From: a virus | Length of the DNA stretch: 64,000 nt | Virus record (IMG/VR): IMGVR_UViG_3300030102_005172 | Span: 32,001 to 96,000 of that record | Direction: 5' to 3' (one strand) | Shown here: positions 1-63,621 of the stretch, in pieces | How positions within the stretch are numbered: the first letter of the stretch is position 1 | How the letters are laid out: every line of letters starts with the position of its first letter | Translations under genes and position numbers: made by a program | Notes under the pieces: model-generated | Databases searched by the model: none | What the model saw: only the letters and a program-made list of their open reading frames with translations | Told to the model about the DNA's origin: nothing

Positions 1-782
1 GATTCTGATTCTTGTTGTCTTTTTGATTTAGAGTTCAGTTTATCTTTTGCTTCATCTCTAAAATGAGAACCTCTTGCTGAAAAATGATATACAACCGACT
101 TAGAAGACATAACAAATTTATATCCTTCTAATTGCATTCTAATAAATAAATCCATGTCATCGTATGACGCAGGTGCGAATAATGGGTCGTTACCACCAAT
201 CCAAACATAGTCTTCTTTTTTACAAAAGAATCCTGCACCACCACCTTTTCTTACACGAGTCTCTGGCATATCTGATAGTTTCTGAGACCAATCATCAAAC
301 CACTCTTTATCAAAGTTATGATGAAACTCACCAAACTCATCAGTTGTAACAAATACTGTTCCTGGTCTGTAATCAGGGTCATTTGGAAATATCTTAGGTT
401 GTATTCTAAATGACGATGCGATTATTCTATCAATCCCATCACCTTCTTCTACAATCTTTTGTAACTCTATATCTTGATTTGGTGCAATCCACATATCAGA
501 GTGGATTATATTTACATATTCTGTTTCTGATTTGTCAACACAAAAGTCCATACCACCACCAATTCCCCTTGGTACATCATTGTGTTCTACAAACCCCTTT
601 AGATTTTTATCTTCTTGCATTAGATTAAGTAACCACTCATCTGTACCATCAGTACAATTCTCTGCGTGAATCACAATCGGCTGGTCTTTGTAGTATGCAT
701 TCTTTCTTACAGATTCGTAAGCAAGTTTTACATAATCAAGATTATTGTTTGTTGATATACAAGTTGTTATTGGACTTTCCAT
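1..782 (-). CDS. Glycosyltransferase family 2 (3' end runs off the window)
   Basis: Manual translation from ATG at 782: MESPITTCISTNNNLDYVKLAYESVRKN...IHAENCTDGTDEWL...YVNIIHSDM. GT-A pattern. Missing from the ORF track because it is truncated. Confidence 0.75.
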   Translation of the reverse strand, partial: MESPITTCISTNNNLDYVKLAYESVRKNAYYKDQPIVIHAENCTDGTDEWLLNLMQEDKNLKGFVEHNDVPRGIGGGMDFCVDKSETEYVNIIHSDMWIAPNQDIELQKIVEEGDGIDRIIASSFRIQPKIFPNDPDYRPGTVFVTTDEFGEFHHNFDKEWFDDWSQKLSDMPETRVRKGGGAGFFCKKEDYVWIGGNDPLFAPASYDDMDLFIRMQLEGYKFVMSSKSVVYHFSARGSHFRDEAKDKLNSKSKRQQESE

Positions 783-31641: not shown

Positions 31642-33723
31642 TTATTTTACATTCAAAGCTGACTTTACTTTTCCTAATGGAAGTTCTTGTGTGCCTTCAA
31701 AGTTGTAACTATATCTACCAGATGAATTTGTTCCCATTCTAAATTGTGAATACTTCATATCACCTGTTGTTTCATTTATACCTGTTAATCCATACCCCGT
31801 CATTGCGAAATACTTACCATCTTTTGCATTTGTTCTTAAAAAGAATACAATTGTGTCTGATAAGTCTTTTGATAGCTTATCTTCTACAAATTTTGATGAA
31901 CCAGGGAATTGTTTATATGTAGTTCCCTTTCCATCTTTATCTACACCAAAGACCTTATATAAAGGTAATGTTGTTTTACCATATATCATTTCTTTTTCTA
32001 TCTCTATTAGTTGTGAGTATAACTTTTTTGCGTCTCCAGATAAATCACCCAAAATATTTTTAAGAACTATTGCTGATTGAAAGTTTGTCAATAACTTAGC
32101 AACAGTATCTTTTGTTACAGGTGCGGTTAAAGAAAGTTTTTCATATCCGTTATAGTAAAATGCTGGATTTGATATAGCTGCGGTTGACAATGCTTTCAGT
32201 TTAATATCTACATTACTTACTAATTTATCTAATACTTTTTGATTTGTTGCAATTTGTTCAAAAGAATCATATATAGATGGTTTTTTAGCTTCATTTAAAA
32301 TACCTTCATGTAATCCTGCTCTTAACAATTCTTTTTCTAATTTTTTAACTTCAGATTTTGGTGATTTTTTTAATCCTTTGAATATCTTTTTTGAGAATCC
32401 AAATAAGAATTTTCCTAATTGAGAAATTTTTTGTAATAAATTAGAACCAATACTTTTTATGAAAGCAACACCCTTATTTAAAAAGTCTCGTAATCCCTCA
32501 TTCAATTGAACTGACTCTAATGCCAACTTCTTAACATCTTCAGTACCCAATAAATTATACTTATCTTTTAAGAATCCGTATATTTTACCTAATTGAGCTC
32601 CACCTTCTGCTTTTTTAAGTGATACTTGTATAAACTTAATACTTGTACCAGTTATTGTACAAACACCCTTTTTATCATATTCAACAGGTAAACCTTCGCT
32701 TAACTTAGATATAAGTTCAGACGCTGGGACATTAGATATGACACAATCGGCAGTATTATCTTTTACACCATCTACTAATTCAGAACGCTCAGTAGCTTGA
32801 TAGTATGATTTAATACTTTTGTGACATATATATGCACCTTTAAATTTCATATCATCTGTAAACTTGGTCATACCTGCCATTAATTGTGCTATCAAGAAAT
32901 AATCCCCAAGTGGCATTGTATCTAATTTAGATAAAATTTCATTAGGTTTTGCATAGTCACCACTCATTCCTAATGCTTTTACAAATTTCTGTTTTACATC
33001 GTTAGTAACTTTTGGTAAAGTTTCTTCGGTAGCTGAATTTAATTGTTTAAGTATACTGAAACCATTTACATATGTTCCCATACATTGTGCGGTTTCCATC
33101 GTTTCTGTATCGAAGTTTACATCGGTTGGTTTAGAACCTTTTCTCATTTTACCGAATAAAGATTGAATGTTTCCATTACTAGCGGTAATTATATAATTTT
33201 TACCAGTATCTTCGGCAGATACATATACAGTTTGACCATTATTTATTTTTACTTGAACACCATCTTCAGTAGGTCCTATTTTAGTAAAAGGTCCTTTAGG
33301 TACTTTTTCACCCTTTGGTAATCCTAATTTCAATAAGTCTGCGGTATTTTTAAGTGGTATGAATTTATCACCTATTGCATATTTGTTATCGTATATTGAA
33401 GCTTCACTAAGAAGTTGTCCTAATTCAATTAGTATATTTTCTTTTACTTCTTCTTTTTTCTTTAACTCATCCTTCTCAATTTGAGTTAACATTCCAAACT
33501 TATCAATTTCTTTTTCGTTTTCTGAATCTTCTTCTTCGGTTTCTTTTTCTTTTTGAAATTCTTGGATTAGGATATCTGCATTCTTTTCACCAACCTCATC
33601 AATTAAGTGATAATAGAATGATTTTAAGAATTCTTCAGTATAGATACCTTCAGTAAGTTTAAGGTCTATATCAGACCAAACTTTCCTTAATATTCTATCT
33701 ACTATGTTTTGGGATTTATTCAT
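31642..33723 (-). CDS. Large hypothetical protein, possible capsid-internal protein
   Basis: 693 aa; late-type motif upstream at 33727-33734; repeated L/I-x-E motifs (LTEG, LSEA, LNEG, LHEG, LNEA). Confidence 0.55.
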   Translation of the reverse strand: MNKSQNIVDRILRKVWSDIDLKLTEGIYTEEFLKSFYYHLIDEVGEKNADILIQEFQKEKETEEEDSENEKEIDKFGMLTQIEKDELKKKEEVKENILIELGQLLSEASIYDNKYAIGDKFIPLKNTADLLKLGLPKGEKVPKGPFTKIGPTEDGVQVKINNGQTVYVSAEDTGKNYIITASNGNIQSLFGKMRKGSKPTDVNFDTETMETAQCMGTYVNGFSILKQLNSATEETLPKVTNDVKQKFVKALGMSGDYAKPNEILSKLDTMPLGDYFLIAQLMAGMTKFTDDMKFKGAYICHKSIKSYYQATERSELVDGVKDNTADCVISNVPASELISKLSEGLPVEYDKKGVCTITGTSIKFIQVSLKKAEGGAQLGKIYGFLKDKYNLLGTEDVKKLALESVQLNEGLRDFLNKGVAFIKSIGSNLLQKISQLGKFLFGFSKKIFKGLKKSPKSEVKKLEKELLRAGLHEGILNEAKKPSIYDSFEQIATNQKVLDKLVSNVDIKLKALSTAAISNPAFYYNGYEKLSLTAPVTKDTVAKLLTNFQSAIVLKNILGDLSGDAKKLYSQLIEIEKEMIYGKTTLPLYKVFGVDKDGKGTTYKQFPGSSKFVEDKLSKDLSDTIVFFLRTNAKDGKYFAMTGYGLTGINETTGDMKYSQFRMGTNSSGRYSYNFEGTQELPLGKVKSALNVK

Positions 33724-45446: not shown

Positions 45447-45935
45447 TTAAAATTGTAGTATTGCGTAATCGTAAGTAAGTGTCATTTCTACTGTTGCCAA
45501 GTCTTCACCTGCGTAGTCCATATCTGAAAAGTTTGCAGATTGGATATATGCACCTTTTAATGTCCACTCTTCTACTTTATCACCAACAGGACCCAAACTG
45601 TTAAATGTGATGTCTTTTTTATAGAAATCAGAGTATCCATCTCTACCTGTTACAGATTCGTGATGTAGTCTTACCCACTCCATTACTGCTTGTGCAGCGG
45701 AAGGTACGACTGGGTCGTATAAAGTGATTGCTAAATCTTGCCACTCAGAACGACCTTTCACATATCTTCTAACATTGATATGGTCGATGGTAACTTTACC
45801 ATTGTTTATTTCTGGTCTGGCTGCCGTTTTCACCAAGTATGCAGGGATTCCTTCGATGTACATGATGAACCTATTTGACATTTTAGGTTCAAAGTTGGTG
45901 AACATTATTTCATTTGGGTCTAATAATTGTGCCAT
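45447..45935 (-). CDS. Tail tube protein (gp19-like)
   Basis: FEPK..NRF, W..L.ITLYDP, YKKDI, EEWTLKGA, LTYDYA; follows the sheath gene. Confidence 0.88.
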   Translation of the reverse strand: MAQLLDPNEIMFTNFEPKMSNRFIMYIEGIPAYLVKTAARPEINNGKVTIDHINVRRYVKGRSEWQDLAITLYDPVVPSAAQAVMEWVRLHHESVTGRDGYSDFYKKDITFNSLGPVGDKVEEWTLKGAYIQSANFSDMDYAGEDLATVEMTLTYDYAILQF

Positions 45936-45983: not shown

Positions 45984-48386
45984 TTATTCAGGGAACGCTG
46001 CGCCTGTTGGTAGTACATTGAAATCAAGTACTATAAACTCTGCAGTTTTCGCTGGTTGAATAAAAATCTCTCCTTTTAAGATGTTTCTATCAATAATATC
46101 TGGTGTATTATTTGATTCATCCATTATTACTCGGAATGCGAACAAACCTTGTCTCTGTTGTACTGACTCTAAGTAAGGGTTAACTATACTTAAGAATCTG
46201 TTTCTTGTCGCTGCCGTATTATTTTCGAACAATAAGAATCTTGAAGATGATGCGATGAACTTCTTCAATGCGATTAACAATCTTCTTACATTGATTCTGT
46301 CAAGTGCGGATGGTCTAGCTTGGAGTGTTTTTTGTCCAAATACCGTAGCACCTTGTCCAGGGAATGTAGCGATTGGGTTAATTCTATTTTCGTATAATGT
46401 ATCTCTTTCATCGTGAGTTAATCTTGATTTAACTTCGATTACATTTGATAAACCACCTCTGTTAAGACCTGCTGGTGCGAACCATGGTTCTGCAACTGCG
46501 TCATTAAATGCGATAACACCTGGTAATACAACACTTGGTGGTACCCAGACTGGCTTATTTTTATCTGTATCAAGGATTTTAACCCATGGATGATAAGTTC
46601 CAACATAATTTGAATCGAATGAACTTAGTGAGTTAACTACTGTTGCGATTGAATCTGAATAAGACCCAGCGTCCATTACATAGAATGCGTCTTGTCTATC
46701 TTCTACCATATCTTTTGCAAAAGTAGTTACTGATGAGTGTAGTCTATTGATTACACCTGGTGTAACTAACATATTCATATCATACTCATCAGGGTTTGAC
46801 ATTGCGTTAATAGCTTTTCTAAATGCAATCGTACCACCTGCAGTCGCTGATGATAAATCTAATCCTTGCATATTACCTGCAACAATGTTTTCTCCTGTAA
46901 GTATTGTTCTGTTTGGTGCGAATCCATCAAATCCACCTTGGAATGGTACATTGAATTTTTTATTGTCTATAATACCATCGTTTAGTGTAATTGCTGCTCC
47001 ATTTGAAATACAATTACTTAGTAAGAACTTAGAACCAACAGTTTCAGAACTTGAATCTGGAATTGGATTTAAGTAGTTTAAGTTATCTGTATTTGTAAAG
47101 TCATATGAGTATCCTAAGAATGCTCTCTTGTTAAATTCACCTGCAATTGACTGAGTTAGTTCATATGTTGGACTTGGTATATCGTGTCCACTATGAATTG
47201 GTGATTTAACTGCTGCAAATCCGAATGGTACAAGACTTGAATCGATTGCTCCCGCGTCTACATCAGAATTTACTTCTACTCTAATGTTTACAGATGCGTT
47301 TGGATAGTCACCATTTGAAGTAACTTTACCATTGTTATCAACAGTAATATATTTGTCACCAATTACTCTCTTAATATAGTTAGGTGAATTAGGGTCTAAG
47401 TTAAGTCCACTAAACTCTTCTACTATATTTGGTCTAACATCACTATCTTGTACATTTTGACCGAAAACAGAATAAGGAATCTTAGAACTATCTACTCTTC
47501 TTACTATTACTGAGAATGTTCCATATTCAGAACCAGGTACTTCATTTGCTGGTTTGATATCTCTAATACCAATTTTAAATTCGTAGTTTGTTGGATTACC
47601 ATGTGATAGTGTGTGGAATCTAAATAAGTTTTTAGTAACACCTGATACATCTTGTGATATGATGAAAGGTGTTGTAGCCTCACAATATGCTTTAGTATAG
47701 TCGGTTTTTCTAAGTGTATCTATTTCTACATCACAATTAGGGTCGCTGGCAAAAGACGATGATTGGAATGTTTTAAAGTTTAGATACAGATAACCGAATT
47801 CCGAACCATTTTTAGGAGATGAACCAAATGTTTTTCCAATATACTTGGTAGATGTTGGGTTCAATGATGCGGTTGCGATTGCAAGTACTGCTGATTCTGA
47901 TAAACCTGTTACTGCACCTGAAGCACTTAAATATAGTGCGAAGTTTGAAGCTGATACTTCTGTTGTTGGTGAAGCGGCTGAACCACTTAAGTTAGTGACT
48001 ACTGATTTATCAAACGAACCTGTTGAGTTTGCTACATTTCCAAATGGAACTTTTGTAGTTGGGTGAATCACCGCTGCTACTGAACCACTAATCTTTAAAA
48101 CTAAAGGTTCAACAGTATAACCACTTTGTCCTAATACTCTAACAATAGTTGCCGTTCCTGCGTCTTCTAAATACGATTGTGCAGTATATGGTAAATATGA
48201 ATCTTCTGTCAATCCACCGAATACCTGCGTAAATTCTTGAAAGGACTCGACTTTGGTTGGTACGAATGCAGGTCCTTTAATACTTTGTCCTATAAGTGCT
48301 GCACCTATTTCACCAATACCTTGAGGTAAAAATGATAGGTCTTTTTCTCTTGTGAATACACCTGGACTAACAATTCTTTCTGCCAT
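45984..48386 (-). CDS. Contractile tail sheath protein (gp18-like)
   Basis: SPGVFTREKD, WFAPAGLNRG, INPI..FPG.G...FGQKT, RINVRRL, PAKTAEFI. Confidence 0.95.
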   Translation of the reverse strand: MAERIVSPGVFTREKDLSFLPQGIGEIGAALIGQSIKGPAFVPTKVESFQEFTQVFGGLTEDSYLPYTAQSYLEDAGTATIVRVLGQSGYTVEPLVLKISGSVAAVIHPTTKVPFGNVANSTGSFDKSVVTNLSGSAASPTTEVSASNFALYLSASGAVTGLSESAVLAIATASLNPTSTKYIGKTFGSSPKNGSEFGYLYLNFKTFQSSSFASDPNCDVEIDTLRKTDYTKAYCEATTPFIISQDVSGVTKNLFRFHTLSHGNPTNYEFKIGIRDIKPANEVPGSEYGTFSVIVRRVDSSKIPYSVFGQNVQDSDVRPNIVEEFSGLNLDPNSPNYIKRVIGDKYITVDNNGKVTSNGDYPNASVNIRVEVNSDVDAGAIDSSLVPFGFAAVKSPIHSGHDIPSPTYELTQSIAGEFNKRAFLGYSYDFTNTDNLNYLNPIPDSSSETVGSKFLLSNCISNGAAITLNDGIIDNKKFNVPFQGGFDGFAPNRTILTGENIVAGNMQGLDLSSATAGGTIAFRKAINAMSNPDEYDMNMLVTPGVINRLHSSVTTFAKDMVEDRQDAFYVMDAGSYSDSIATVVNSLSSFDSNYVGTYHPWVKILDTDKNKPVWVPPSVVLPGVIAFNDAVAEPWFAPAGLNRGGLSNVIEVKSRLTHDERDTLYENRINPIATFPGQGATVFGQKTLQARPSALDRINVRRLLIALKKFIASSSRFLLFENNTAATRNRFLSIVNPYLESVQQRQGLFAFRVIMDESNNTPDIIDRNILKGEIFIQPAKTAEFIVLDFNVLPTGAAFPE

Positions 48387-50153: not shown

Positions 50154-51317
50154 TTATCCTATAAAAATTGGTCTTGGAACTCTGTTTAAAGTTTCCTCTA
50201 AAAATTCAGATTCTTCTTTTCGCGCTTCCATTAATGCTCTACGAGAAGTTGATTCTAACATTTCTTTCAATTCCGTTAATAAAGTTTCTTTTTCTGCAGA
50301 TGCCTCATTTCTTAAATCAGCACCATCAAGTGTTACATCCGCACCTGGTATAGGGATAGAACTAAACTTAGCTCTAATTGCACCTAACATTTCTTTTGCT
50401 AATGCCAATGCATATCTTGCAATCCATTGTTTTCCTGCACTATTAATATTTGTATATGTTAGTCTACCAAATGGTGCATTTGATAAATCACTCACAACAT
50501 TTGAATTTGCTATTGGTGATTTACTTTCACTTTCTAATGTATAATCAAAATATACTTTTGCACCTGCGTCTTTAGATTGTGGGAATGGATATAATCTAAT
50601 TCGTTTACCATCAACATGGAATCCATATGCAGACTTACGAATAAGGTCATTGAATTCAATAGCTTGTAATCTTAAAAGGTCATCAAACATAGGTTGCATC
50701 ATAAATGAGACACCAGGGGAATAATTACCCCATCCAAAAGTTTCTAACATTTGTTGAGAACCTAAACCTGTACCGATAAATGGGTCAAAGTATCTTATGA
50801 TTGCTGGTGGTTGTGTATGGAATACTCTTCTAAGTACAATTCCATCACTTACTGAACCACTTTCTAAACTTACAACACTTGCGTCACTCAAATCATAAAT
50901 TTGTTGATTTGCTACCATTGTAAAAGAACCTGTATATACTGTTACTCGTCCACCACTTAATCCTTCAGTACCATAATCTTTTGCTATACTAACCATACCA
51001 CTTAGGTTCGGTGCGATTTCAGTATCTTTTAAATCACCACCCAATGCAGAACCTTGTATGGATAACATATTTTCTTTTGCTCTATATTGATTAACTTGTG
51101 AAGAATATTCATTAGCTGCCTCTTCAAGACAAGTAAAAAAGTTTATATCTTGTAATTCGACATCTACGATTGGATATCCTAATCTCTTCGCACACCATTC
51201 TGCAACTTTCGGAGCGTCACTTTGAAATTGTGTATCACCATCAAAGTATCCGAAAGGAGTTGATGAACCACTTGTAAATGAACCTGAGCCAGGCCAAATT
51301 GGAATATTTACTGCCAT
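50154..51317 (-). CDS. Neck protein (gp13-like)
   Basis: RLGYPIVDVEL, WIARYALALAKEMLGAIRAKF, TLDGADL. Confidence 0.8.
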   Translation of the reverse strand: MAVNIPIWPGSGSFTSGSSTPFGYFDGDTQFQSDAPKVAEWCAKRLGYPIVDVELQDINFFTCLEEAANEYSSQVNQYRAKENMLSIQGSALGGDLKDTEIAPNLSGMVSIAKDYGTEGLSGGRVTVYTGSFTMVANQQIYDLSDASVVSLESGSVSDGIVLRRVFHTQPPAIIRYFDPFIGTGLGSQQMLETFGWGNYSPGVSFMMQPMFDDLLRLQAIEFNDLIRKSAYGFHVDGKRIRLYPFPQSKDAGAKVYFDYTLESESKSPIANSNVVSDLSNAPFGRLTYTNINSAGKQWIARYALALAKEMLGAIRAKFSSIPIPGADVTLDGADLRNEASAEKETLLTELKEMLESTSRRALMEARKEESEFLEETLNRVPRPIFIG

Positions 51318-51352
51318 TTAATTCTCCTCTATGTATATAAATATGGAAATAA

Positions 51353-53161
51353 TTAGCTTTCCCTATTTTCCATAAACGAAACTACAATATAACGAGTACC
51401 TTTTGTTGTAGCCCTTGCGCCGTGCTTATGTGTTATATTGCCAGGGTGTAATGTTGCGTAACCAATTGGACCTTTTACTAACTTCTTTTGTCTTCTAAAC
51501 CAAGTACCACCACCCTCGTACTCGTCTAAGTCTGATAATTGTATCAAACAAGTAATATCTGCTCTATCATGATGTATAGAAAGATGTCCTTGTGCATTTG
51601 GTTTATATTTAGCTAAAAAGTTTTCAGATTTCATATCATCCCAACCTTTACCTTCTAACGCCCATAAATATATGCTAAGTTGCATAACATACTCTTTCAT
51701 GACATCATTATATATTTCATCCATACCGATTGCGGTTAGTAACATATCTGTTGTTGGGTAGTTTTCATGTCTATCAACAGTCCATGAGTCTGAATATTCT
51801 GCCTCTTCTCTAATTTTTTTACAAAACTCTTCTGTAAATAGTGGGAATGTAAAACAACTATCAAAAGGTTCATCTACAATCAAATCCCATTCTTTTGTTC
51901 TAGCCGAGTATGTAATAAACTTCTTTGTCCATTCTTCTTTATTATCCCAATATGAATATAAATCATTATGTAATCTTTGTGAGTCTTGAGGTGGTCTAAA
52001 TCCCCTAGCCTCATCTGGTAATGTGTCTTGTATCATGTTTAACCAAGTTTTATATCTATTATCCCAATTTTGTTGTCTTGCAAATGTTTCTGCTTTGTTT
52101 AAATTTTCTTCTAATTTATCACCTTGTTCATTTGAAAAAGCATATGCCGCAACAAAAGTATATCTCATTAATCCTGCGTTTTTATTTTCAATGTCTTCAT
52201 CACTATCTTCTAAAAAAGGTGACTTTTGTTCTTGATTTTTTCCATGTGTAAATGAACTAATTAATGTACTTTTATTATTTAGTAATGTTTTTAAATTACC
52301 TGTATCTGTTGATAGTACTTTCACTCTACCCATCATCATTTCAAGAGCGGTTATACAATATGTTTCAGGATATTGTGATGGATAAATCCACCACTCAGAA
52401 GATTTAATTTGTCTAATCAAATCGGATGGATTTAAAGAACCTAAATAATGTACATCAAAATTTTTATCATAATTTGGAAAATCTCTTTTGATTCTATTCC
52501 ATTCGTCCCAATTGTCAGTATAAGGTGGGTTTGCAATCCATAATGTTAATTTAGGATTTATCTTTTTTAAATCATCCCATATTTGAAGTAAGTTCCATAA
52601 CCCTCTATCTGGTCCTGATGTATAAATTACTTTATCTTTAAATTTTTCTTGTGAAATATCATCAAAATCTTGTGGATTTATTGCATTACTTATGACTTTT
52701 ACTTTATCTGGATTTATATTATATTTTTTAACTAATTTACCTTTTTGCCATTCTGATACTGCAATTATATTTGTTAATTTAGAATGATTTAGATAGTCTA
52801 ATCCATTATTTGGTAAAACCTCACCATTGTAAAATGGATAAAATTCTAAATTATGTATCCAAAAGTACGATTTGTCAAATGTAATATTTTTTTCTTCAAG
52901 GTGTTTAAAATAGTGTATATAATTTGATGCAATTACTACATCAAAGTGTTGATTATTTGGAAGATTTCTATAATCAAGATATTTTACATTATTATATGTT
53001 TCTTGTTTAACTTGTCCTGTAACATAAACATCATGACCATCACGACCAAACTTATCTGCTAAATTAATAACACAATACTCAGAACCACCTGTACCATTTT
53101 CTTTCCAATCAGTATAACTAAGTGGTTTGTTTTGATATCCTACTGTAAATAAAACTTTCAT
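51353..53161 (-). CDS. Fusion: GT4 glycosyltransferase + PLOD-type lysyl hydroxylase (2OG-Fe(II)) domain
   Basis: N-terminal GGSE, YTSGPDRGL, ETYCITALE. C-terminal LHNDLY..W, FPLFTEEFC, ENYPTTD, NFLAKY.P..Q..L..HHD, YEGGGTWF, LHPGNITHKH, GTRYIVVSF. Confidence 0.85.
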   Translation of the reverse strand: MKVLFTVGYQNKPLSYTDWKENGTGGSEYCVINLADKFGRDGHDVYVTGQVKQETYNNVKYLDYRNLPNNQHFDVVIASNYIHYFKHLEEKNITFDKSYFWIHNLEFYPFYNGEVLPNNGLDYLNHSKLTNIIAVSEWQKGKLVKKYNINPDKVKVISNAINPQDFDDISQEKFKDKVIYTSGPDRGLWNLLQIWDDLKKINPKLTLWIANPPYTDNWDEWNRIKRDFPNYDKNFDVHYLGSLNPSDLIRQIKSSEWWIYPSQYPETYCITALEMMMGRVKVLSTDTGNLKTLLNNKSTLISSFTHGKNQEQKSPFLEDSDEDIENKNAGLMRYTFVAAYAFSNEQGDKLEENLNKAETFARQQNWDNRYKTWLNMIQDTLPDEARGFRPPQDSQRLHNDLYSYWDNKEEWTKKFITYSARTKEWDLIVDEPFDSCFTFPLFTEEFCKKIREEAEYSDSWTVDRHENYPTTDMLLTAIGMDEIYNDVMKEYVMQLSIYLWALEGKGWDDMKSENFLAKYKPNAQGHLSIHHDRADITCLIQLSDLDEYEGGGTWFRRQKKLVKGPIGYATLHPGNITHKHGARATTKGTRYIVVSFMENRES

Positions 53162-53162
53162 A

Positions 53163-54449
53163 TTATTCTACTATATAATTAACAGATTCTTCATTTTCAT
53201 AATATCGATTGTCATCCCTATAACCAATTTCTTTTATAGAATGTCCTGCCTCATCATCCCACATCCAATCTTCTTTTCCAAGTTCTTCAAATCTTTCTTT
53301 GATTTGAAAATCATAATAATCTCTAATCAACCTTGCTCTTCGATTAATATCTATTCTATTGTTATCAACAGTAGAATCACCATTATTATATTGTACATAT
53401 AGCATTTTTTTCAGATGTATAAATTTAGTTTCTAAAAATGTTTTAATAATTAATTCAAAATCATCTGCTACTGATATGTTTCTACTATGTCCTCTTATTT
53501 TATGATAAGTATCTCTATGCCAAACTCTACAATGATTAGGCATTCCTATATTATATCTAATAGTTTTTGGATTTATTTCTGGATAATGATGAACTAACCA
53601 ATCTCTATTATCAATGTTTTTCCAAGTGTGACCTGCGTATCCCCACACAAATCCATTATCAGGATGATGATACCAATCATCACCGATGTGACCATAAATT
53701 CTTGGTGAATCATCTTTTTCTATTTCTGTTACATCCGTATAAATAAATCCAGCGTCTTTATGTTTTCTACTTGCATTTAGTACATCCTCTAAACAAGTTG
53801 ATATTAACCAATCATCATGGTCTAACTCAAATAACCACTCACCATCACATAACATAGCCGCTCTGTGTTTTGCTTCACCCACATTTCCACCTGATATTGG
53901 GAGTATTCTATGTGGTTTTACTCTATAATCTAACTTTGCTATATGATTTAACATTTCCCAAGTTAAATTATGGTCTTCAGGTGAATCATCTACAACTACC
54001 CATTCCCAATTTTGATATGTTTGTTCAACTAAAGATTTGTATGTTCTAAAAATTCTTTTTTCTGTTTTATATGTTGGTGTAAATACTGATAATAATGGAG
54101 TTTCTTCATTACTATAAATTTCATTTGTTGAACAAGCCCAAAATGTTGAATTACAAACTATATCATTTGCAATAATGTTGTCACTTAGTATTTCTTCACT
54201 ACCAATTATTTTTGATTCAACTATTAGATTATCTATTTCTTCTAATTCAATAGGTAACTTACCAAAATGAAAAATAACATCTGGTTTATGTTTAGATAAA
54301 TGTAGTTTAAAGTTTTTACTTGAAGGATATGAGTGTACTACTACTTTTTCATACAAACCTTCTTGAAAATAGACATCTGATGTAAGTTCATATCTTCCAA
54401 ATCTATTCCAACCATAAACTAAAGCCGTTGGTAAAGTTGTTTTTTGCAT
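53163..54449 (-). CDS. Glycosyltransferase family 2 with extra N-terminal domain
   Basis: LSVFTPTY, EWVVVDDS, ELDHDD, ADDFEL. Confidence 0.85.
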   Translation of the reverse strand: MQKTTLPTALVYGWNRFGRYELTSDVYFQEGLYEKVVVHSYPSSKNFKLHLSKHKPDVIFHFGKLPIELEEIDNLIVESKIIGSEEILSDNIIANDIVCNSTFWACSTNEIYSNEETPLLSVFTPTYKTEKRIFRTYKSLVEQTYQNWEWVVVDDSPEDHNLTWEMLNHIAKLDYRVKPHRILPISGGNVGEAKHRAAMLCDGEWLFELDHDDWLISTCLEDVLNASRKHKDAGFIYTDVTEIEKDDSPRIYGHIGDDWYHHPDNGFVWGYAGHTWKNIDNRDWLVHHYPEINPKTIRYNIGMPNHCRVWHRDTYHKIRGHSRNISVADDFELIIKTFLETKFIHLKKMLYVQYNNGDSTVDNNRIDINRRARLIRDYYDFQIKERFEELGKEDWMWDDEAGHSIKEIGYRDDNRYYENEESVNYIVE

Positions 54450-54452
54450 ATC

Positions 54453-55055
54453 CTATCTGTATGGTTCACCACCTACCCATAATACAAAAGATTTTCTTAC
54501 ACCTTTTGTTACAGGAGTTATTCTATGTAAATAAAATGATGGAAATATTACTGCAGCACCTTGTACTCTTGGTGCAACAAGTTTTTTACCAATATTAAAC
54601 TCTAAATCACCACCTTCGTATTCATCTGAATCTGAAAGTTGTACAGTTACTGATATTTTTCTTTGATTTTGTATTTCAATTCCACAATCCATGTGCCATT
54701 CATATCCACCTTCTTGTGTTCCATAGTATTCTGTATATTGAATTTGTTCATTCATGGTAGATAAATCAAACTTCCACATTTTATTATTTGATTCTGCAAT
54801 CATATCGTGAAGTTTTTTGTATACCCATCCCCATTCTTGATTTTGAGGACACCACTTTATTCTTGATTTTCTATAATCTGATTTTTTTGATTGTTGACCT
54901 TCGCCTGTTACTGCGTCTTGAAACTCAATTTGTTTGGTCATACCTTCTATGGTTTGTAACTCTTGTAGAGTAAATCCATCTTTAAACCAATAATAATCGT
55001 TGAAATTAACATCCCATCTATAAGGGTTTCTATCGAATCCAAAATTTGTTCTCAT
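54453..55055 (-). CDS. 2OG-Fe(II) oxygenase (PKHD/prolyl-hydroxylase-like)
   Basis: YEWHMD, RKISVTVQLSD..EYEGGDL, FPSF..HRITPVTKGVRKS. Confidence 0.88.
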   Translation of the reverse strand: MRTNFGFDRNPYRWDVNFNDYYWFKDGFTLQELQTIEGMTKQIEFQDAVTGEGQQSKKSDYRKSRIKWCPQNQEWGWVYKKLHDMIAESNNKMWKFDLSTMNEQIQYTEYYGTQEGGYEWHMDCGIEIQNQRKISVTVQLSDSDEYEGGDLEFNIGKKLVAPRVQGAAVIFPSFYLHRITPVTKGVRKSFVLWVGGEPYR

Positions 55056-55096
55056 AACTTTTTATTTGATGTTTGTATATAAATATTAAAATAATT

Positions 55097-58000
55097 TTAG
55101 TAAAAGCTACCACTATGTACAGACCTTACTATGTAAACATCATCACCCTCAGACCAACCTTCAGGTTTAAATGTTAGTACACCACCAGTAACTTCAAAGT
55201 ATCCATCGCCAGGTATTTGAGAACCTTGAGCACCTGCTCCACCACCCGTTCCTACTGTTCCTGTTGGTCCTTGAGCACCTTGAGCACCTTGATTACCTTT
55301 AGCACCTACTGCGCCAGTATTTCCTTTATTACCTTTAGAACCTTTAGTACCTACTGCGCCTGTATTACCTTTTTTACCTTTGTTACCTGCGTCACCTGTT
55401 TCGCCTGTACGACCTAAGTTACCTTTACTACCTTTAGCACCTGCATTACCTTGTGGACCTGTATTACCCTTTTGACCTTTTGAACCTTGAGCACCTTCAT
55501 CACCAGATGCGCCTGTATTACCTTTTATACCTGTAAGACCTGTATTACCTTTTTGACCTTTAGCACCTGCGTCGCCTGTTTCACCCGTTGCACCTGTTGA
55601 ACCTTGTCGACCCTCTCCACCTGTTGAACCTTTAGCACCTGCGTTACCTTGTACTCCTTTATGTCCCTTGTTTCCTTTTGAACCTTGAGCACCCTCATCA
55701 CCTGATGCGCCTGTTGAACCTCTATTACCTTTGTTACCAGTTGCACCTTGAGAACCTACTGCACCTGCGTTACCTTGTGCTCCTCTATTTCCCTTGTTAC
55801 CCGTTGCACCTTTATTACCTTTTGCACCTGCCGCGCCTGTATTACCTTTTACACCAGTTGCACCTTGAAGTCCTTGAGCACCTTCATTACCTGATGCGCC
55901 TGTTGAACCTATATTACCTTTGTTACCAGTTGCACCTTGAGCACCTTGGTTTCCACTTGCACCTTGAGCACCTCGATTACCCTTTGCACCTTGATTTCCT
56001 TGAGAACCTTGATTTCCTGCCGCGCCTGTATTACCTTTTACACCAGTTGCACCTTGAGCACCTTGAGCACCTTCATCACCTGAAGCACCTTGTACTCCTT
56101 TATGTCCCTTTTGACCTTTTGAACCTTGAGCACCTTGATTACCTTTAGCACCTGCTGCACCTTGAGAACCTACTGCACCTTGAACTCCGGCATTACCTTG
56201 AGAACCTTGATTACCTGCAGCGCCTGTATTACCTTTTACACCCGTTGCACCTGGTTCACCTTTTTTACCTTTTTGACCCACAGAACCTTGAGCACCTTGA
56301 GCACCTTGGTTTCCTTTTGCACCTTGAGCACCTTGATTACCTTTAGCACCTGCAGCACCTTGAGAACCTACTGCACCTTGAACTCCGTCATTACCTTGAG
56401 AACCTTGATTTCCTGCTGCGCCTGGGTTTCCTATTTTACCATCACGACCTAAATTACCTTTTTGACCTTTGTTACCACTTGCACCTTGAGCACCTTGAGC
56501 ACCTCGGTTTCCTTTTGCACCTTGATTACCTTTAGCACCTTTAGCACCTGCCGCACCTTGAGCACCTTCAGCACCTTGAACTCCGTCATTACCTTGAGAA
56601 CCTTGATTACCTGCTGCGCCGGTATTTCCTTTATGACCATTACGACCTAAATTACCTTTTTGACCTTTATTACCTGCAGCGCCTGTATTACCTTTTGCAC
56701 CTTGATTACCTTGAGAACCTTGATTACCTGCAGCGCCTGTATTTCCTTTTACACCAGTTGCACCTTGAGCTCCCCTAGCACCTTCATCTACTAAACCACC
56801 TACTGCACCTTGAGCACCTTGAGCACCTGCAGCACCTTGTTCACCAGTAAAATCTTCCTCTAATATTTGTTCAGGGTCCATGTCAGAACCTTTTTGTCCC
56901 TTAGAACCTTGATTACCTTGATTACCTTTAACACCAGTTGCACCTTGAGGGCCTGTTGCACCTTGAGGGCCTGTATTTCCTTTTGCACCTTGTAGACCTG
57001 TTGCACCACCTTCACCTTTTGGACCTGCCGTACCTCTATTCCCTTTATCACCTGTTGCGCCTGTATTTCCTTTTGCACCTTGTCTACCTGTGTTTCCACT
57101 ATTCCCAACTGCACCTTGAGCACCTTGTGCACCTGTTTCACCATCAAAGTCTGGCTCTAATATTCCTTCGGGGTCCATCTCAGAACCTTTTTGTCCCTTT
57201 TGACCTGTTGCACCTTGATTACCTTTAACACCAGTTGCACCTTGAGGGCCTGTTGCACCTTGAGGGCCAGTTGCACCTTTTAAACCTTGTGGACCTTGAG
57301 CACCACCTTCACCTTTTGGAGCTCCAGCGCCAGTATTACCTTTTGCACCTGTTCTACCCGTTGCACCTGTCGAACCTTTAGCACCTGCGGCGCCCCTATT
57401 TCCTTTTGAACCTGTACGACCTAAGTTACCTTTAGCACCAAAATCACCCCCACTACCTTTATTTCCTTTTACACCTGTTGCACCTTGAGCACCTTGAGCG
57501 CCTGTTTCAGCCGCTGCACCTTGTCTACCTGTATTTCCTTTTACACCTTGTGGACCTTGAGCACCTTGGTTTCCACTTGCACCTTTATTTCCTTTATGGC
57601 CTGTTGCACCTGCTGCACCTTGAGCACCTTGATTACCTACTCGGCCTGTATTTCCTTTTGCACCTTGTCTACCTGTGTTTCCACTTGGAGCGTCTACACC
57701 TGCCGCACCCGGCACACCAGTATTTCCTTTATGGCCTGTTGCACCCATTGAACCTTTTTGACCTGCGGCGCCAGTATTTCCTTTATGGCCTGTTGCACCC
57801 GTTGAACCTTTTTGACCTGCAATACCTGTATTTCCTTTTACACCTGTTGCGCCTGTATTTCCTTTTGCACCTTTATTACCTGCAGCGCCTGTATTACCTT
57901 TTGCACCCGTTCTACCTTGATTACCCGTTGAACCTTTTTGACCTACTGCGCCGGTATTTCCTTTTGCACCTGTTCTACCCGTTGCGCCTGTTGAACCCTT

Positions 58001-59200
58001 TGCACCTGCTGCGCCTGTATTTCCTTTTGCACCTGTTCTACCTAAATTTCCTGTTGGTGGGTCTGCACCTGCCGAACCTGGCCTACCTACTCGGCCTGTA
58101 TTTCCTTTTGAACCTGTTGCACCTTGAGGGCCTGTTGCGCCTGTTGGGGCGTCTGAACCTGCCGCTCCTTGAGCACCTTGAGCACCATTTAGGGCCACAT
58201 CAGCTGAAGCTCCTTGAGCACCAGCAGACCCAACTTTTCCTTGAGAACCTGCTGCACCTTGAGCACCTTGAGCACCTGTTGGTCCAAGTTGTCCAGCTGG
58301 TGCCAGATGTTCCTCTCCTTTTTGACCTTTTGAACCTTTAGGACCTGTTGAAGAGTCTGAATCGGTACAAGAACTACAATTTGAGAACCAATCGAAATTA
58401 TCTACAGTTAAACATAATGCAGTACCATCTGGAAAACTAGCGTTTGTACCACTAAAGTTGTAACAAATATTACTGATTTTTGCTACATTGTTTGGTCTTG
58501 TATCATCAAATGCAAAACTTGCTGGTCCATATCCACTACATCTTGGTACATTATTATACTGAACTGAACATCCCTCATCACCATTAAAAAAGTTGTGTAC
58601 TACGAATCTATTTACCATGAATAGGTCAGATTCTTCTACATCTAAACTTCTAACATCAAAATATCCATATATAGGTTCATCTTCATTTACTTCTTGTACA
58701 CCATCTATAATTGGTACATATTCGAATGTAGAATTATCTTCTTTTAGTCTTACTAAGTAATGATTGTCATAATCACTTGCATTTCCCCACTCAAGACCAT
58801 CTAATTGTTCAAAGAAAACATTCCATCCGCTTTGAAAAGATGATGTAGTTTCAGTTTCTTCGTCCCAACTAAATGCTCTATTTTTTTGAGCAACCATGAT
58901 GTATTCATCTTCATCGAGAGTTAGTGAACCTGATGGTGTTTCTAATGTGTATAGTGATTTCCAAAGTCTTGTACCTATTGGTCCTACATCTTTGATAACC
59001 TCATTTTCATTTAATTGAAGATATGAAAAATCATCGTAACTACCTGTCCAATTTATTGGAATGTCATTATTATTTGTATATGGGTTACCAACAATACTAA
59101 CACCTACAATAGAAGAACCTGTTTGAAGTGTACCTATTGCGGCAGTATTACCTGATAGATTTAGTAAAGTATGTTGAGATTTTAAGAAACCACCAATCAT
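55097..59200 (-). CDS. Hint-domain + Cys-rich + collagen-like fibre protein (Lys-rich)
   Basis: [18 protein letters not shown] at aa 186-203; six-Cys segment; Gly-X-Y from about aa 286 over more than 1000 aa; short C-terminal beta domain. Confidence 0.85.
55217..58345 (-). repeat. Collagen Gly-X-Y coding repeat
   Basis: 9-nt periodic acc-nnn-nnn pattern on the plus strand. Confidence 0.9.
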
Positions 59201-59219
59201 TGTAACCTTTTATTTTATT

Positions 59220-62200
59220 TTAAGAAGAACCACTTGTATACATTAATACTACAAATTTTGTACTTCCACTTGTAAATGTTAATAATCCGTCTGTTGCCGA
59301 GTATGCGAATCCACCACTTCCACCTATTTCAGCGCCACCAATTAATGTTCCTAATGCATTTGCACCTTTTTGACCTTTACTTCCTTGACCACCTTGAGCA
59401 CCTGTTGCACCTTGAGCACCTTGTTCACCTGTTGGACTAGCACCTTGAGCACCTTGAGCACCTTGGTCACCTTTTGGACTGGCACCTTGAGCACCTTGAG
59501 CTCCTGTTGGACTTGCACCTTGAGCACCTTGTGGTCCTTGAGCACCTTGAGCACCTTGAGGACTTGCACCTTGAGCACCTGTTGCACCTTGAGCACCTTG
59601 TTCACCTTGTTCACCTGTTGGACTAGCACCTTGAGCACCTTGAGAACCTTTTGGTCCTTGAGCACCTTGAGCTCCTTGAGGACTTGAACCTTGAGCACCT
59701 TGAGGTCCTTGAGCACCTTGTGGTCCTTGAGCACCTTGAGCACCTTGAGGACTAGCACCTTGAGCACCTGTTACACCTTGAGCACCTTGTTCACCTTGTT
59801 CACCTGTTGGACTTGCTCCTTGAGCACCTTGAGGTCCTTGAGCACCTTGAGGTCCTTGAGCACCTTGAGGACTTGACCCTTGAGCACCTTGTGGTCCTTG
59901 AGCACCTTGATTACCTTGAGCACCTTGAGGACTAGCACCTTGAGCACCTTGTGAACCTTTAGGTCCTTGAGCACCTTGTTCACCTGTTGGACTAGCACCT
60001 TGAGCACCTTGAGGTCCTTGAGCACCTTGATTACCTTGAGCACCTTGAGGACTTGAACCTTGAGCACCTTGTTCACCTTGTTCACCTTTTGGTCCTTGAG
60101 CACCTTGAGGACTGGCACCTTGAGCACCTTGTGAACCTTTAGGTCCTTGAGCACCTTGTTCACCTGTTGGACTAGCACCTTGAGCACCTTGGACACCTTG
60201 AGCACCTTGAACACCCGTTGCACCTTGAGCACCTTGAGGACTTGAACCTTGAGCACCTTGTTCACCTTGTTCACCTTGAGCACCTTGAGCACCTTGAGGA
60301 CTGGCACCTTGAGCACCTTGAGAACCTTTTGGTCCTTGAGCACCCTGTTCACCTTGTGGACTTGCCCCTTGAGCACCTTGGAGACCTGTTGCACCTTGAG
60401 CACCCGTTGCACCTTGAGCACCTTGCGGACTTGCACCTTGAGCACCTTGTTCACCTTGTTCACCTTGAGCACCTTGAGCACCTTGTGGACTTGCTCCTTG
60501 AGCACCTTGAGAACCTTTTGGTCCTTGAGCACCTTGAGCACCTTGTGGACTTGCCCCTTGAGCACCTTGGAGACCTGTTGCACCTTGAGCACCCGTTGCA
60601 CCTTGAGCACCTTGAGGACTTGAACCTTGAGCACCTTGTTCACCTTGTTCACCTTGAGCACCTTGAGCACCTTGAGGACTGGCACCTTGAGCACCTTGAG
60701 AACCTTTTGGTCCTTGAGCACCTTGAGCTCCTTGAGGACTTGCACCTTGAGCACCTTGAGAACCTTTTGGTCCTTGAGCCCCTGTTGGACTTGCACCTTG
60801 AGCACCTTGAGAACCTTTAGGTCCTTGAGCACCTGAATCACCTTGAGCACCTTGAGCACCTTGAGCACCTGCAGCACCTTGAGCACCTGCACTACCTTGA
60901 GCACCTTGTAGACCTTGAGCACCAGTACCTTGGTCACCTTTAGGACCTTTTGCACCTTGTGCACCTGTATTACCTTTAGGTCCTTGAGCACCTTGTGGTC
61001 CTTGAGCACCCGTTGCTCCTTGAGCACCTTGAGGTCCTTGAGCACCTTGAGCACCTTGTGGACTTGAACCCGTTGCTCCTTGAGCACCTTGTGGTCCTTG
61101 AGCACCTTGATTACCTTTAGGTCCTTGAGCACCTTGAGCACCTGTTGTTCCTTGTGCACCTTGATTACCTTGAGCACCCGTTGCCCCTTGAGCACCAGCA
61201 CCTTGGTCACCTTTAGGACCTTTTGCACCTTGTGCACCTGTATTACCTTTAGGTCCTTGAGCACCTTGTGGTCCTTGCGCACCCGTTGCACCTTGAGCAC
61301 CTTGATTACCTTGTGGACCTTGAGCACCTTGTGGACTTGAACCTGCCGCTCCTTGAGCACCTTGAGGTCCTTGAGCACCTTGAGCACCTTGTGGACTTGA
61401 ACCTTGAGCACCTTGTGAACCTTTAGGTCCTTGAGCACCTTGAGCACCTTGTGGACTAGCACCTTGAGCACCTTGATTACCTTTTGGTCCTTGAGCACCT
61501 TGAGCACCTTGAGGTGATGACCCTGCAGGTCCTTGAGCACCTTGTGAACCTTTAGGTCCTTGAGCACCTTGAGGACTGGCACCTTGAGCACCTTGATTAC
61601 CTTTAGGTCCTTGAGCACCTTGAGCACCTTGTGGACTTGAACCTTGAGCACCTTGTGAACCTTTTGGTCCTTGAGCACCTTGAGCACCTGTTGTAGTTCC
61701 ACCTTGTGGACCTTGAGCACCTTGAGACCCTTTAGGTCCTTGAGCACCTTGAGGACTTGAACCTTGAGCACCTTGTGAACCTTTAGGTCCTTGAGCACCT
61801 TGAGGACTTGAACCTTGAGCACCTTGTGAACCTTTTGGACCTTGAGCACCTTGTGAACCTTTTGGACTTGAACCTTGAGCACCTTGTGAACCTTTTGGTC
61901 CTTGAGCACCTTGAGCACCTTGTGGACTTGAACCTTGAGCACCTTGTGAACCTTTTGGACCTTGAGCTCCTTGAGCACCTTGAGGACTTGCACCTTGAGC
62001 ACCTTGAGAACCTTTTGGACCTTGAGCACCTTGAGCACCTGTTGTAGTTCCACCTTGTGGGCCTTGAGCACCTTGTGCACCTTGAGAACCTTTTGGTCCT
62101 TGAGCACCTTGAGGTCCTTGAGAACCTTGTGTAGTTCCACCCGTTGCACCTTGAGCACCTTGAGAACCTTGTACACTTGCACCCGTTGCACCTTGAGCAC

Positions 62201-62774
62201 CTTGAGAACCTTTTGGTCCTGAACTACCCGATGAACCTTGAGCACCTGTTGGTCCTTTTGCACCTGTTGAACCTGGCGAACCACCGGCACCTTTTTGACC
62301 TTTTTGACCTTTTTGACCTTGTGGTCCTGTGTTATGTACTAATAACTCACCTATAAAATAATTGTGGTCAGGTTCTACCTCTATACTTATGAGTTCTATT
62401 GGTCCTTCTACATATTTTACTGAAGTGACCTTAATATCGTTGAAGAATAGTTTACCATCACACTTACAATCTTTATCTGCGCATGATGTATTACCGATTG
62501 GTGAAACCCATTCACCATCTTTGAATATTTTTATATCAACGGAAGTTTTTAATTCAGTTCCGTCTGAAAGTTTAAGTTCTAAATAGGAGTTTAGTTGTCG
62601 TGTAAATTTAGTTACAACCTTGTTGTACCTTACGACACCATTTTCAACATCATAACCTTTTATGTAGTCACCAACTTCAATATTTGACAAGTTAATTGGA
62701 ACACCTTGTCTTTTATTTACTCTTCCTTTGATGTCTACTAAGGTATCTTTATGTAATCCATGTATTAATTCCAT
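59220..62774 (-). CDS. Hint-domain + collagen-like fibre protein (GAQ/GPQ-rich)
   Basis: GLHKDTLV...IEVGD...[18 protein letters not shown]|TG (aa 6-148), then about 990 aa of Gly-X-Y with SPQ inserts. Confidence 0.9.
59360..62327 (-). repeat. Collagen Gly-X-Y coding repeat dominated by accttgagc
   Basis: Long run of near-identical 9-nt units with periodic 6-nt inserts. Confidence 0.92.
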
Positions 62775-62784
62775 AATTTACCCC

Positions 62785-63621
62785 TTAACTAACAAAATCA
62801 AGTCTTAATATTATTGTAAAACCAAATCCTCGTGACCTTGTGGTTGCCATTCTATTAATAAATAAATTTAATCTATCATTAGCACTAAAACTATATGATG
62901 AACCAAAAGTATAAGTTGTTGGAACACCTGCCGTTGCTGAAATTGAACCACCTATTGCACTTCCTAAATTTCCAGATTGGTTTTTCCATGTTAGTTCAAC
63001 TTCACCACCCGTTGCAGATTGATGTGGACTTACAATTACTTTTTCTACATATCCATCTACGGGAACAACATATTGCCAATAACCAGTTTGAACATCACCA
63101 TCTATTTGGTTTATATTTGCAAATGGGATATAACCAGTTGTTTCAGCTGCTTTTAGTACCTCACCATTTGTATGTATTATTTGTTTTTCTTTTGTTGCGT
63201 CAATTAGACCAGTAATTTCAACACCACTACTCTGTACTCTTAATTTTGTACTACCACCTCGTCTAAGATGTACTTCATCACTAGCATTTAAAAGTAATTT
63301 AGTACCTGAAGTTGTAGATTCTATGTCAGAACTTGCTCCGAAGTTCACTTTCTTATCTGAAGATAGGTTTATTTCATCTGCAGTAGTGATATCACCACTA
63401 ACTTGTAAAGAACCTGTGACTTGAACACCAGTATTATTTGTTTTTAATCTTGTTGAACCGCCTGTTACAAGTACAATAGTATTACCTGCACTAAATCCAA
63501 ATTTAGTGTCTGTATCACCTAAGTGTTCAACATATTGTGGTATAAGTATTTCACCTGATGCGGTGATATCATTCAGTACGGCGTTACTGCCTGATGTAAT
63601 AAGTTTTTTCCAATTTGGCAT
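62785..63621 (-). CDS. Putative virion fibre/structural protein
   Basis: 278 aa, beta-rich; GDTDTKFGF..NTIVL.TGG..RL fibre-like repeats. Confidence 0.55.
   Translation of the reverse strand: MPNWKKLITSGSNAVLNDITASGEILIPQYVEHLGDTDTKFGFSAGNTIVLVTGGSTRLKTNNTGVQVTGSLQVSGDITTADEINLSSDKKVNFGASSDIESTTSGTKLLLNASDEVHLRRGGSTKLRVQSSGVEITGLIDATKEKQIIHTNGEVLKAAETTGYIPFANINQIDGDVQTGYWQYVVPVDGYVEKVIVSPHQSATGGEVELTWKNQSGNLGSAIGGSISATAGVPTTYTFGSSYSFSANDRLNLFINRMATTRSRGFGFTIILRLDFVS

Follow-up and report, generated by a model that had tools for sequence, protein, structure and literature searches.

Hint (Hedgehog/intein) domains located just before a payload have been proposed to release the payloads of polymorphic toxins by autoproteolysis, and Hint-mediated release of a downstream part is already an established idea for these toxins (PMC3482391, available part). 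Self-cleavage by asparagine-lyase chemistry is described as an established catalytic type in the accessible portion of PMC3207474. Here, we describe a locus at which a Hint domain heads a viral collagen-like protein. The locus lies in a stretch of 64,000 nucleotides (hereafter, the window), corresponding to positions 32,001 to 96,000 of a 118-kb IMG/VR virus record (IMGVR_UViG_3300030102_005172), in which all long open reading frames (ORFs) are on the minus strand. The gene in question, termed the Hint-collagen gene, encodes 1184 aa, and the product would, in our preferred reading, shed its N-terminal Hint domain by a single self-cleavage at the border of the collagen rod.

Several described systems are comparable to this protein. 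The PT-HINT domains of polymorphic toxins (Pfam PF07591) are the nearest sequence relatives of the phage cap and likewise stand directly before the part to be released, according to the available part of PMC3482391; in contrast, the phage cap is N-terminal and single rather than tandem, has lost the N-terminal catalytic residues, is followed by Thr instead of Lys at position +1, and carries a structural collagen rod rather than a toxin as its payload. Bacterial intein-like (BIL) domains (2lwy and Tetrahymena BUBL BIL2, 6y75 and 6tmm) are also close, but the Hint relatives recovered in this analysis retain Cys1 and the TxxH motif, whereas the phage cap has Gly1 and no block-B His; the cap further differs from BIL domains in its position at the very N-terminus behind a 5-aa leader, its Thr +1, and its fusion to collagen. 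Unlike class 1 mini-inteins (gp41-1; 6qaz, 6riz), it does not interrupt a host protein, has no two exteins to be joined, and contains no homing endonuclease. Engineered intein mutants altered at residue 1 serve as C-terminal self-cleaving tags, while in the phage cap both Cys1 and TxxH are naturally absent.

With respect to outcome, the Peptidase_S74 chaperones of fibres and spikes and the propeptides of animal procollagen resemble what is proposed here, namely the removal of a terminal domain from a mature trimeric fibre. Peptidase_S74 domains are C-terminal, have a different fold, use a Ser-Lys dyad, and drive trimerisation, while procollagen propeptides are removed by separate proteinases. 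An earlier interpretation of the window made from its letters alone (the sequence-only reading) had drawn the analogy to tailspike chaperones, which holds for the outcome but not for fold and chemistry; no Peptidase_S74 match was seen in the Hint-collagen protein in Pfam and PHROG scans. No paper linking Hint or intein-like domains to collagen-like proteins of phages was found in full-text searches, which did not extend to subscription journals, and the available part of a comparative paper on jumbo phages mentions inteins only in essential enzymes (PMC7824862). The novelty resides in the pairing of a viral collagen with a Hint domain that lies at its extreme N-terminus and whose front is naturally disabled.

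Identity and active-site residues of the N-terminal Hint domain

The Hint-collagen protein consists of a 148-residue non-repetitive head, 302 Gly-X-Y triplets (aa 150-1139), and a 45-residue tail, and codons 1-148 of its ORF correspond exactly to coordinates 62331-62774. By both fold and significant sequence similarity, the head is a genuine domain of the Hint superfamily. The AlphaFold2 (AF2) model, based on a 26-sequence alignment, reached a mean predicted local distance difference test (pLDDT) score of 79.4 and a predicted template modelling score of 0.74. A Foldseek search of this model against the Protein Data Bank (PDB) returned 59 matches with E <= 0.001, of which the best 40 were all inteins, BIL domains, or Hedgehog proteins, led by Tetrahymena BIL2 (6tmm and 6y75; 2.6e-9), gp41-1, NpuDnaB, and the Clostridium thermocellum BIL domain (2lwy). 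The fold was closest to solved BIL structures, and in this respect the head agrees with type A bacterial intein-like domains. In many of the structural alignments, model residues 6..148 were matched to the first through last residues of the chain (Mtu RecA, 1..440; MchDnaB-1, 1..145; a class 3 DnaB intein, 1..139), which identifies Gly6 as intein residue 1 and Asn148 as the last intein residue. The sequence identity to the BIL structures (2lwy, 6y75, and 6tmm) was only 15-22%. In BFVD, the matching structures belonged to Hint or intein proteins of phages and giant viruses, and no match carried a collagen label.

Sequence searches gave a corresponding picture. Among PDB sequences, phmmer matched the gp41-1 intein (E 8e-4) and the C. 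thermocellum BIL domain (2lwy; E 1.5e-3), and both alignments stopped exactly at N148. A PT-HINT profile search, which the sequence-only reading had recommended, yielded a match for aa 1-158 with an E-value of 5.6e-4 (20.6 bits), below the gathering cut-off of 27.7 bits, and the whole 1184-aa protein scored 15.0 bits; we treat the head, on this evidence, as a divergent relative of PT-HINT rather than a Pfam-defined member. An unindexed phmmer search against 1.84 billion representatives retrieved 260 proteins with E <= 0.001 (20 at <= 1e-10 and 3 at <= 1e-30). The top matches outside the collagen-linked family (E 6e-21 to 1e-13) were proteins in which Hint domains of the form CF.AGT...T..H...HNK occur in tandem, and all five non-family relatives that were scanned were Pfam PT-HINT members (E 2e-11 to 1.5e-41). 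Descent from the PT-HINT/bacterial intein-like branch, with reduction to the last step of protein splicing, is the best explanation for these results. A word-indexed search limited to proteins of 651-2072 aa found nothing, and no match at E <= 0.01 was obtained when aa 1-158 were compared by tblastn with 50,697 deposited phage records, although records near the genome of the window were possibly excluded.

The functional residues were assessed by re-aligning the best 150 of the 260 phmmer matches to the query, which gave 194 domain rows (195 with the query). According to the available part of PMC4031507, His F:13, His G:6, and Asn G:7 act in Asn cyclisation (step 3), while Thr B:7, His B:10, and Asp F:4 activate the N-terminal junction. 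The former set is present in the head (His137, His147, and Asn148, respectively), and the latter is largely lost (Ser78, Ile81, and Ser130, respectively). Residue 1 in the collagen family was Gly (11 rows), Ser (P0156 and P0020), or Ala (P0157 and P0025). At the corresponding fixed offset from the GD motif, Cys was found in 66 rows and Phe, the residue that follows Cys in the ‘CF’ pair, in another 66, suggesting that most other Hint rows carry Cys1. In block B, 151 of the 194 rows had TxxH (145) or SxxH (6), whereas the collagen family had SxxI, SxxS, or SxxA. At the column of H137, 153 of the 195 rows had His, 24 had other residues, and 18 had a gap. All 172 rows that reach the C-terminus ended in HN, the other 22 ending sooner; the following residue was Lys in 83 of the 172 and Thr in 14, and the Thr rows among the 60 rows listed were all from the collagen family. 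In the window, the codons at this junction are CAT for H147 (62336-62334), AAC for N148 (62333-62331), and ACA for T149 (62330-62328).

Most of what the sequence-only reading had claimed about these residues was borne out: aa 6-148 are Hint-like in predicted fold and similarity, Gly occupies the position of the first nucleophile in sequence and structure alignments alike, purifying selection has kept both the C-terminal His-Asn and the block-F His intact, and the collagen starts directly after Asn148. Its statement that the block-B His is absent was also confirmed but requires a correction, in that the residues aligned with the Thr and His are S78 and I81, not D80, with I, S, or A at the latter position across the family. 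Compared with canonical class 1 inteins, the head retains the terminal His-Asn, the block F His, and a Cys/Ser/Thr residue at +1, and it lacks the residue-1 nucleophile, the block B TxxH, and insertion between two ligated exteins. With these three defining features missing, the head is not a canonical intein.

The collagen-linked family was recovered through IMG/VR pattern scans, the unindexed phmmer search, and a profile search of longer proteins. The pattern scan gave 28 candidate stretches, 16 of which encode relatives at 46-83% identity. In all 16 loci, the ORF begins with ME(L/H)IHGLHKDTL, and HN/TGP passes directly into collagen. Upstream of the start codon, only 0-3 in-frame codons precede a stop in all 16 loci, indicating that there is no real N-extein. 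The profile search added three further complete proteins (P0155, P0156, and P0157; 268-365 aa) with 42-57% identity to the domain of the window, in which HN/TGP follows SIEVEPDHN (SITVEPDHN in P0156) and the same type of C-terminal tail occurs. Their leaders include the variants MNYNLIH (P0156) and MSLIH (P0157), with the -1 His kept. The domain is full length and free of frameshifts in all 16 loci and in these three proteins.

Among 12 distinct sequences with a minimum pairwise identity of 46%, 43 of 153 columns were invariant, including I4-K9, S78, D80, K82, the ten residues S130-Y139, H147, N148, T149, and G150; D80 is replaced by K in P0157. In nine distinct DNA versions, H137 and H147 were each encoded by CAC or CAT, N148 by AAC or AAT, and T149 by all four Thr codons. 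This synonymous codon turnover indicates that the constraint acts on the amino acids, i.e., purifying selection.

Two further observations concern this domain. An 18-nt segment, TTACATAAAGATACCTTA (62739-62756, minus strand; L7-H-K-D-T-L12), was identical in all 10 distinct DNA versions from the window and loci L002-L017. It contains an ACC Thr codon, which is expected to be uncommon in DNA of 33% GC, and synonymous variation does occur in the adjoining codons of Leu3, His5, and Gly6; the segment may be constrained at the nucleotide level, for example as an RNA element or a recombination joint. In addition, the longer variants of the family carry a Cys-containing loop (four Cys in some relatives), while shorter variants have an 8-residue deletion. 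The AF2 confidence was low at this loop (block pLDDT of 64 and 53), which could be a metal-binding or disulphide knob.

Proposed C-terminal cleavage and competing explanations

We propose with moderate confidence, on the basis of the residue pattern, that the head is a single-turnover Hint pro-piece restricted to C-terminal cleavage. The loss of the front residues together with the retention of the Asn-cyclisation residues gives a pattern that fits C-terminal cleavage only. After folding of the Hint domain, the side-chain amide of Asn148 would attack its own backbone carbonyl, a C-terminal succinimide would form on the Hint fragment (aa 1-148), and the Asn148-Thr149 bond would break by asparagine-lyase chemistry, in one turnover and with no hydrolysis. 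The computed mass of this fragment is 16.73 kDa, replacing the ~16.5 kDa expected in the sequence-only reading. The freed chain (92.1 kDa, computed) would begin with Thr-Gly-Pro-Gln-Gly, and its Gly-X-Y repeat would run from the second residue. The domain would most likely cap the N-terminus temporarily, while the chain is made and modified and its helix zips up from the C- to the N-terminus, and would be shed afterwards, because three globular domains of 16.7 kDa without a linker would clash on a thin triple helix. Nothing points to the role of trimerisation chaperone that had also been suggested for it. In a more elaborate version, which we regard as distinctly doubtful, the cap would be a folding-gated, single-use asparagine lyase: it would stay on the nascent chain while the hydroxylase and glycosyltransferases act and the helix zips from the C-terminal tail, and arrival of the helix at the HN/T junction would trigger cyclisation, releasing only correctly registered trimers.

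Several points weigh against cleavage. In the available part of PMC4031507, some inteins are described as cleaving at the C-terminus only after the N-terminal steps, and in class 2 inteins, C-terminal cleavage drops drastically when His B:10 or Asp F:4 is mutated; both residues are absent from the Hint cap. Blocks F and G could be conserved for folding rather than catalysis, given that all of S130-Y139 is invariant and not His137 alone, and the invariant -1 His, I4-K9, and +1 Thr are not required by a simple model of Asn cyclisation. The Hint domain also falls below the Pfam PT-HINT cut-off, and its loss would leave a mature chain without a recognisable N-terminal attachment domain.

Phage fibres normally need an N-terminal attachment domain, and no other candidate for one was seen in the Hint-collagen protein. 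The head might be a permanent structural head or anchor, in which an intein-derived fold attaches the collagen fibre to the virion or engages a binding partner without any cleavage, HN and block F being part of the fold core. The invariance of all ten block F residues and of I4-K9, beyond the catalytic positions, suits such a role, as does the absence of His B:10 and Asp F:4, two residues reported to matter for C-terminal cleavage by some inteins (PMC4031507, available part). However, HN is dispensable for the fold, since one of 16 distant alignment rows (P0101) ends in RG, yet it is invariant in every family member despite synonymous codon turnover, and the same VHN is the most conserved motif in the very divergent N-terminal domain of the neighbouring collagen (see below). 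The lack of a linker between Asn148 and the first triplet would also be awkward for three globular domains held permanently on one helix. We consider a permanent anchor somewhat unlikely on balance, yet a serious rival to cleavage.

Two other explanations appear far less probable. Thr149 might attack the His5-Gly6 bond, in the manner of the +1 Cys of class 2 (Ala1) inteins, so that MELIH would be ligated onto the collagen. A small residue 1 (G, A, or S) resembles that of Ala1 inteins, the +1 position always holds a hydroxyl residue (Thr through all four codons), and neither the -1 His nor the LIH motif varies. However, class 2 inteins, whose mechanism is described in the available part of PMC4031507, need Thr B:7, His B:10, and Asp F:4 according to the same source, whereas B:10 is Ile and F:4 is Ser here; attack of a Thr hydroxyl on an unactivated amide would be chemically unlikely, and the product would differ by only five residues with no obvious use, which makes non-canonical splicing of this kind very improbable. 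The domain could instead be the decaying remnant of an intein or BIL domain, devoid of present function and inherited together with the collagen gene, in which case the loss of Cys1 and the block-B His would be equally expected. This is hard to reconcile with its full length and lack of frameshifts throughout the 16 loci and three further proteins, with the invariance of specific residues under synonymous codon variation despite divergence to 42-46% identity, and with the conserved synteny and start codon context, and we judge decay to be highly improbable as well. C-terminal cleavage by the Hint cap is the reading that we retain.

The collagen rod, the second collagen, and their genomic setting

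The rod was matched by Pfam Collagen (PF01391) above its gathering score (E 8.6e-85, 278.9 bits), and many PHROG ‘tail fiber’ families matched the protein through its collagen repeat. The Gly-X-Y repeat begins one residue after Asn148. Among the 16 IMG/VR ORFs, seven were complete (942-1280 aa), the others running off their contigs or loci. Over all complete family members (268-1280 aa), the length of the collagen rod varies more than four-fold (roughly ten-fold in the repeat itself), while the Hint head and the type of tail remain constant. The shared 45-aa C-terminal tail may be the trimerisation nucleus. A likeness to the T4 fibritin foldon was considered but dropped, as no Pfam or PDB match supports it: the C-terminal 60 aa matched no Pfam family and no PDB relative (best E 2.4). 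Collagen following Hint was likewise rejected as a general trait of Hint relatives; a Gly-X-Y run was present in only 4 of the best 150 matches, of which three were fragments of the collagen family, and the fourth (P0058) had a short run far from its Hint domain.

The next gene also encodes a collagen, and a second, more degenerate Hint-like cap probably heads it, although we do not regard this as established. Its N-terminal 203 aa had no Pfam match and no PDB sequence match, and the AF2 model (6-sequence alignment) reached a pLDDT of only 42.8. A pattern search of IMG/VR for relatives gave 89 matches, 17 of which were confirmed, in addition to a more distant copy in L016 (9754-10233); L031 and L034 also carry the domain. 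V201, H202, and N203 were invariant in all six second-domain sequences, down to 27% identity, and were followed by F, D, A, or P; VHN was the most conserved motif of this otherwise very divergent domain. A Hint relation is supported only by profile-profile comparison: hhalign against the Hint alignment was co-linear over the whole domain, with a probability of 40%, or 74.8% (E 2.6e-5) with a broader alignment. In the latter, an invariant Asp192 takes the place of the block-F His. In the window, a Cys-rich segment of ~80 aa separates this domain from its collagen, compared with only ~20 residues in L031. The C-terminal tails of the two collagens showed no significant likeness (BLASTP E 0.66), and we make no claim of paralogy or heterotrimers.

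The coordinates of all features are summarised in Table 1. The order of transcription is the 278-aa fibre-like gene, the Hint-collagen gene, the second collagen, a 2OG-Fe(II) oxygenase, a GT2 glycosyltransferase, a GT4/GT1-OGFOD2-like fusion, and the neck, sheath, and tube genes. The fibre-like gene lies just upstream of the Hint-collagen gene in all 16 related loci (tblastn). The stop-containing spacer between them usually measures 10 nt, as in the window, but 9 nt in L002. Such variation between 9 and 10 nt means that the two genes have no fixed frame relation, and their fusion via readthrough or frameshifting was ruled out by this variation together with two stops in L002. AAGGGG, AGGGG, or AAGGGA precedes the ATG in all 10 distinct Hint-collagen DNA versions listed.

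Table 1. Positions of the Hint-collagen gene, its parts, and neighbouring features in the window.
Feature	Coordinates	Strand	Description or basis
Hint-collagen gene	59220..62774	minus	1184 aa + stop; Hint domain, then collagen-like rod, then 45-aa C-terminal tail
5-residue ‘N-extein’ MELIH	62760..62774	minus	I4 and H5 invariant in 12 distinct sequences
Hint domain proper, Gly6-Asn148	62331..62759	minus	AF2 pLDDT 79.4; Foldseek and structural matches to BIL domains/inteins; phmmer matches to PT-HINT proteins
Gly6 at Cys1/Ser1 nucleophile position	62757..62759	minus	Same spacing to GD motif as C of ‘CF.AGT’ in distant Hint relatives
Block-B region S78-V-D-I-K82 replacing TxxH	62529..62543	minus	Alignment with Hint rows
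Cys-containing loop S97-D106 (C98, C103, C105)	62457..62486	minus	Between Hint blocks B and F
Block F, S130-IEVEPDHN-Y139	62358..62387	minus	His137 = F:13; Ser130 in place of Asp F:4
His147-Asn148/Thr149, predicted scissile bond and new N-terminus	62328..62336	minus	Alignment and codon variation
Collagen-like region, aa 150-1139	59358..62327	minus	302 Gly-X-Y triplets, 43 runs, no Cys, 37 X-Lys-Gly
45-aa non-collagen C-terminal tail (ALGTLIGG...VLMYTSGSS)	59223..59357	minus	Kept in 7 complete ORFs and short proteins
Ribosome-binding site AAGGGG	62781..62786	minus	Overlaps TAA stop of upstream gene; 6 nt before ATG
Upstream fibre-like gene, 278 aa	62785..63621	minus	phrog_18345 tail fiber, E 2.5e-5; separate protein
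Second collagen gene, 1367 aa	55097-59200	minus	Next after Hint-collagen gene
N-terminal 203 aa of second collagen, ending FVVHN203	58592..59200	minus	Probable degenerate Hint-like domain
Oxygenase/glycosyltransferase genes	51353-55055	minus	2OG-Fe(II) oxygenase; GT2 glycosyltransferase; GT4/GT1 fused to OGFOD2-like oxygenase domain
Head-tail adaptor-like protein	50154-51317	minus	Myovirus-type tail region
Tail sheath	45984-48386	minus	Myovirus-type tail region
Tail tube	45447-45935	minus	Myovirus-type tail region

The closest cultured phage by tail sheath was Microcystis phage Mel-JY01 (54.9% identity), for which the tblastn search gave no match to the Hint domain. Within 50154-63621, the fibre-like gene, the collagens, the modifying enzymes, the head-tail adaptor-like gene, and two small genes occur in this order, with the sheath and tube genes after them, which we take to resemble the T4 order of gp12, wac, gp13-15, gp18, and gp19. 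By synteny, the collagen genes would sit where T4 has its fibritin (whisker) gene. The oxygenase and glycosyltransferase genes beside the collagens, together with the 37 X-Lys-Gly triplets, fit a collagen-modifying module. The mature product is likely a fibre of the phage neck/tail region: the fibre-like gene lies on one side of the gene, and the collagen-modifying enzymes come on the other, followed by the neck, sheath, and tube genes.

Implications for fibre maturation in phages

If correct, C-terminal cleavage by the Hint cap would represent a natural counterpart of the engineered residue-1 intein tags, scarless upstream of a defined new N-terminus, in a virus maturing a structural fibre. 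The uses of Hint domains recognised so far, i.e., splicing, cholesterol transfer, toxin release, and ubiquitin-like conjugation, would be widened to include the maturation of collagen fibres. The compact 148-residue domain and its panel of natural variants could also serve to study how Asn cyclisation proceeds when the N-terminal half of the intein active site is missing. If the folding-gated version were true and the second cap took part, the two would constitute a phage ‘procollagen’ maturation system independent of that of animals, with an intein relic in place of the procollagen N-proteinase. Overall, the finding bears on how very long collagen-like fibres may be made and mounted in an abundant, uncultured group of phages with genomes of about 170-180 kb.

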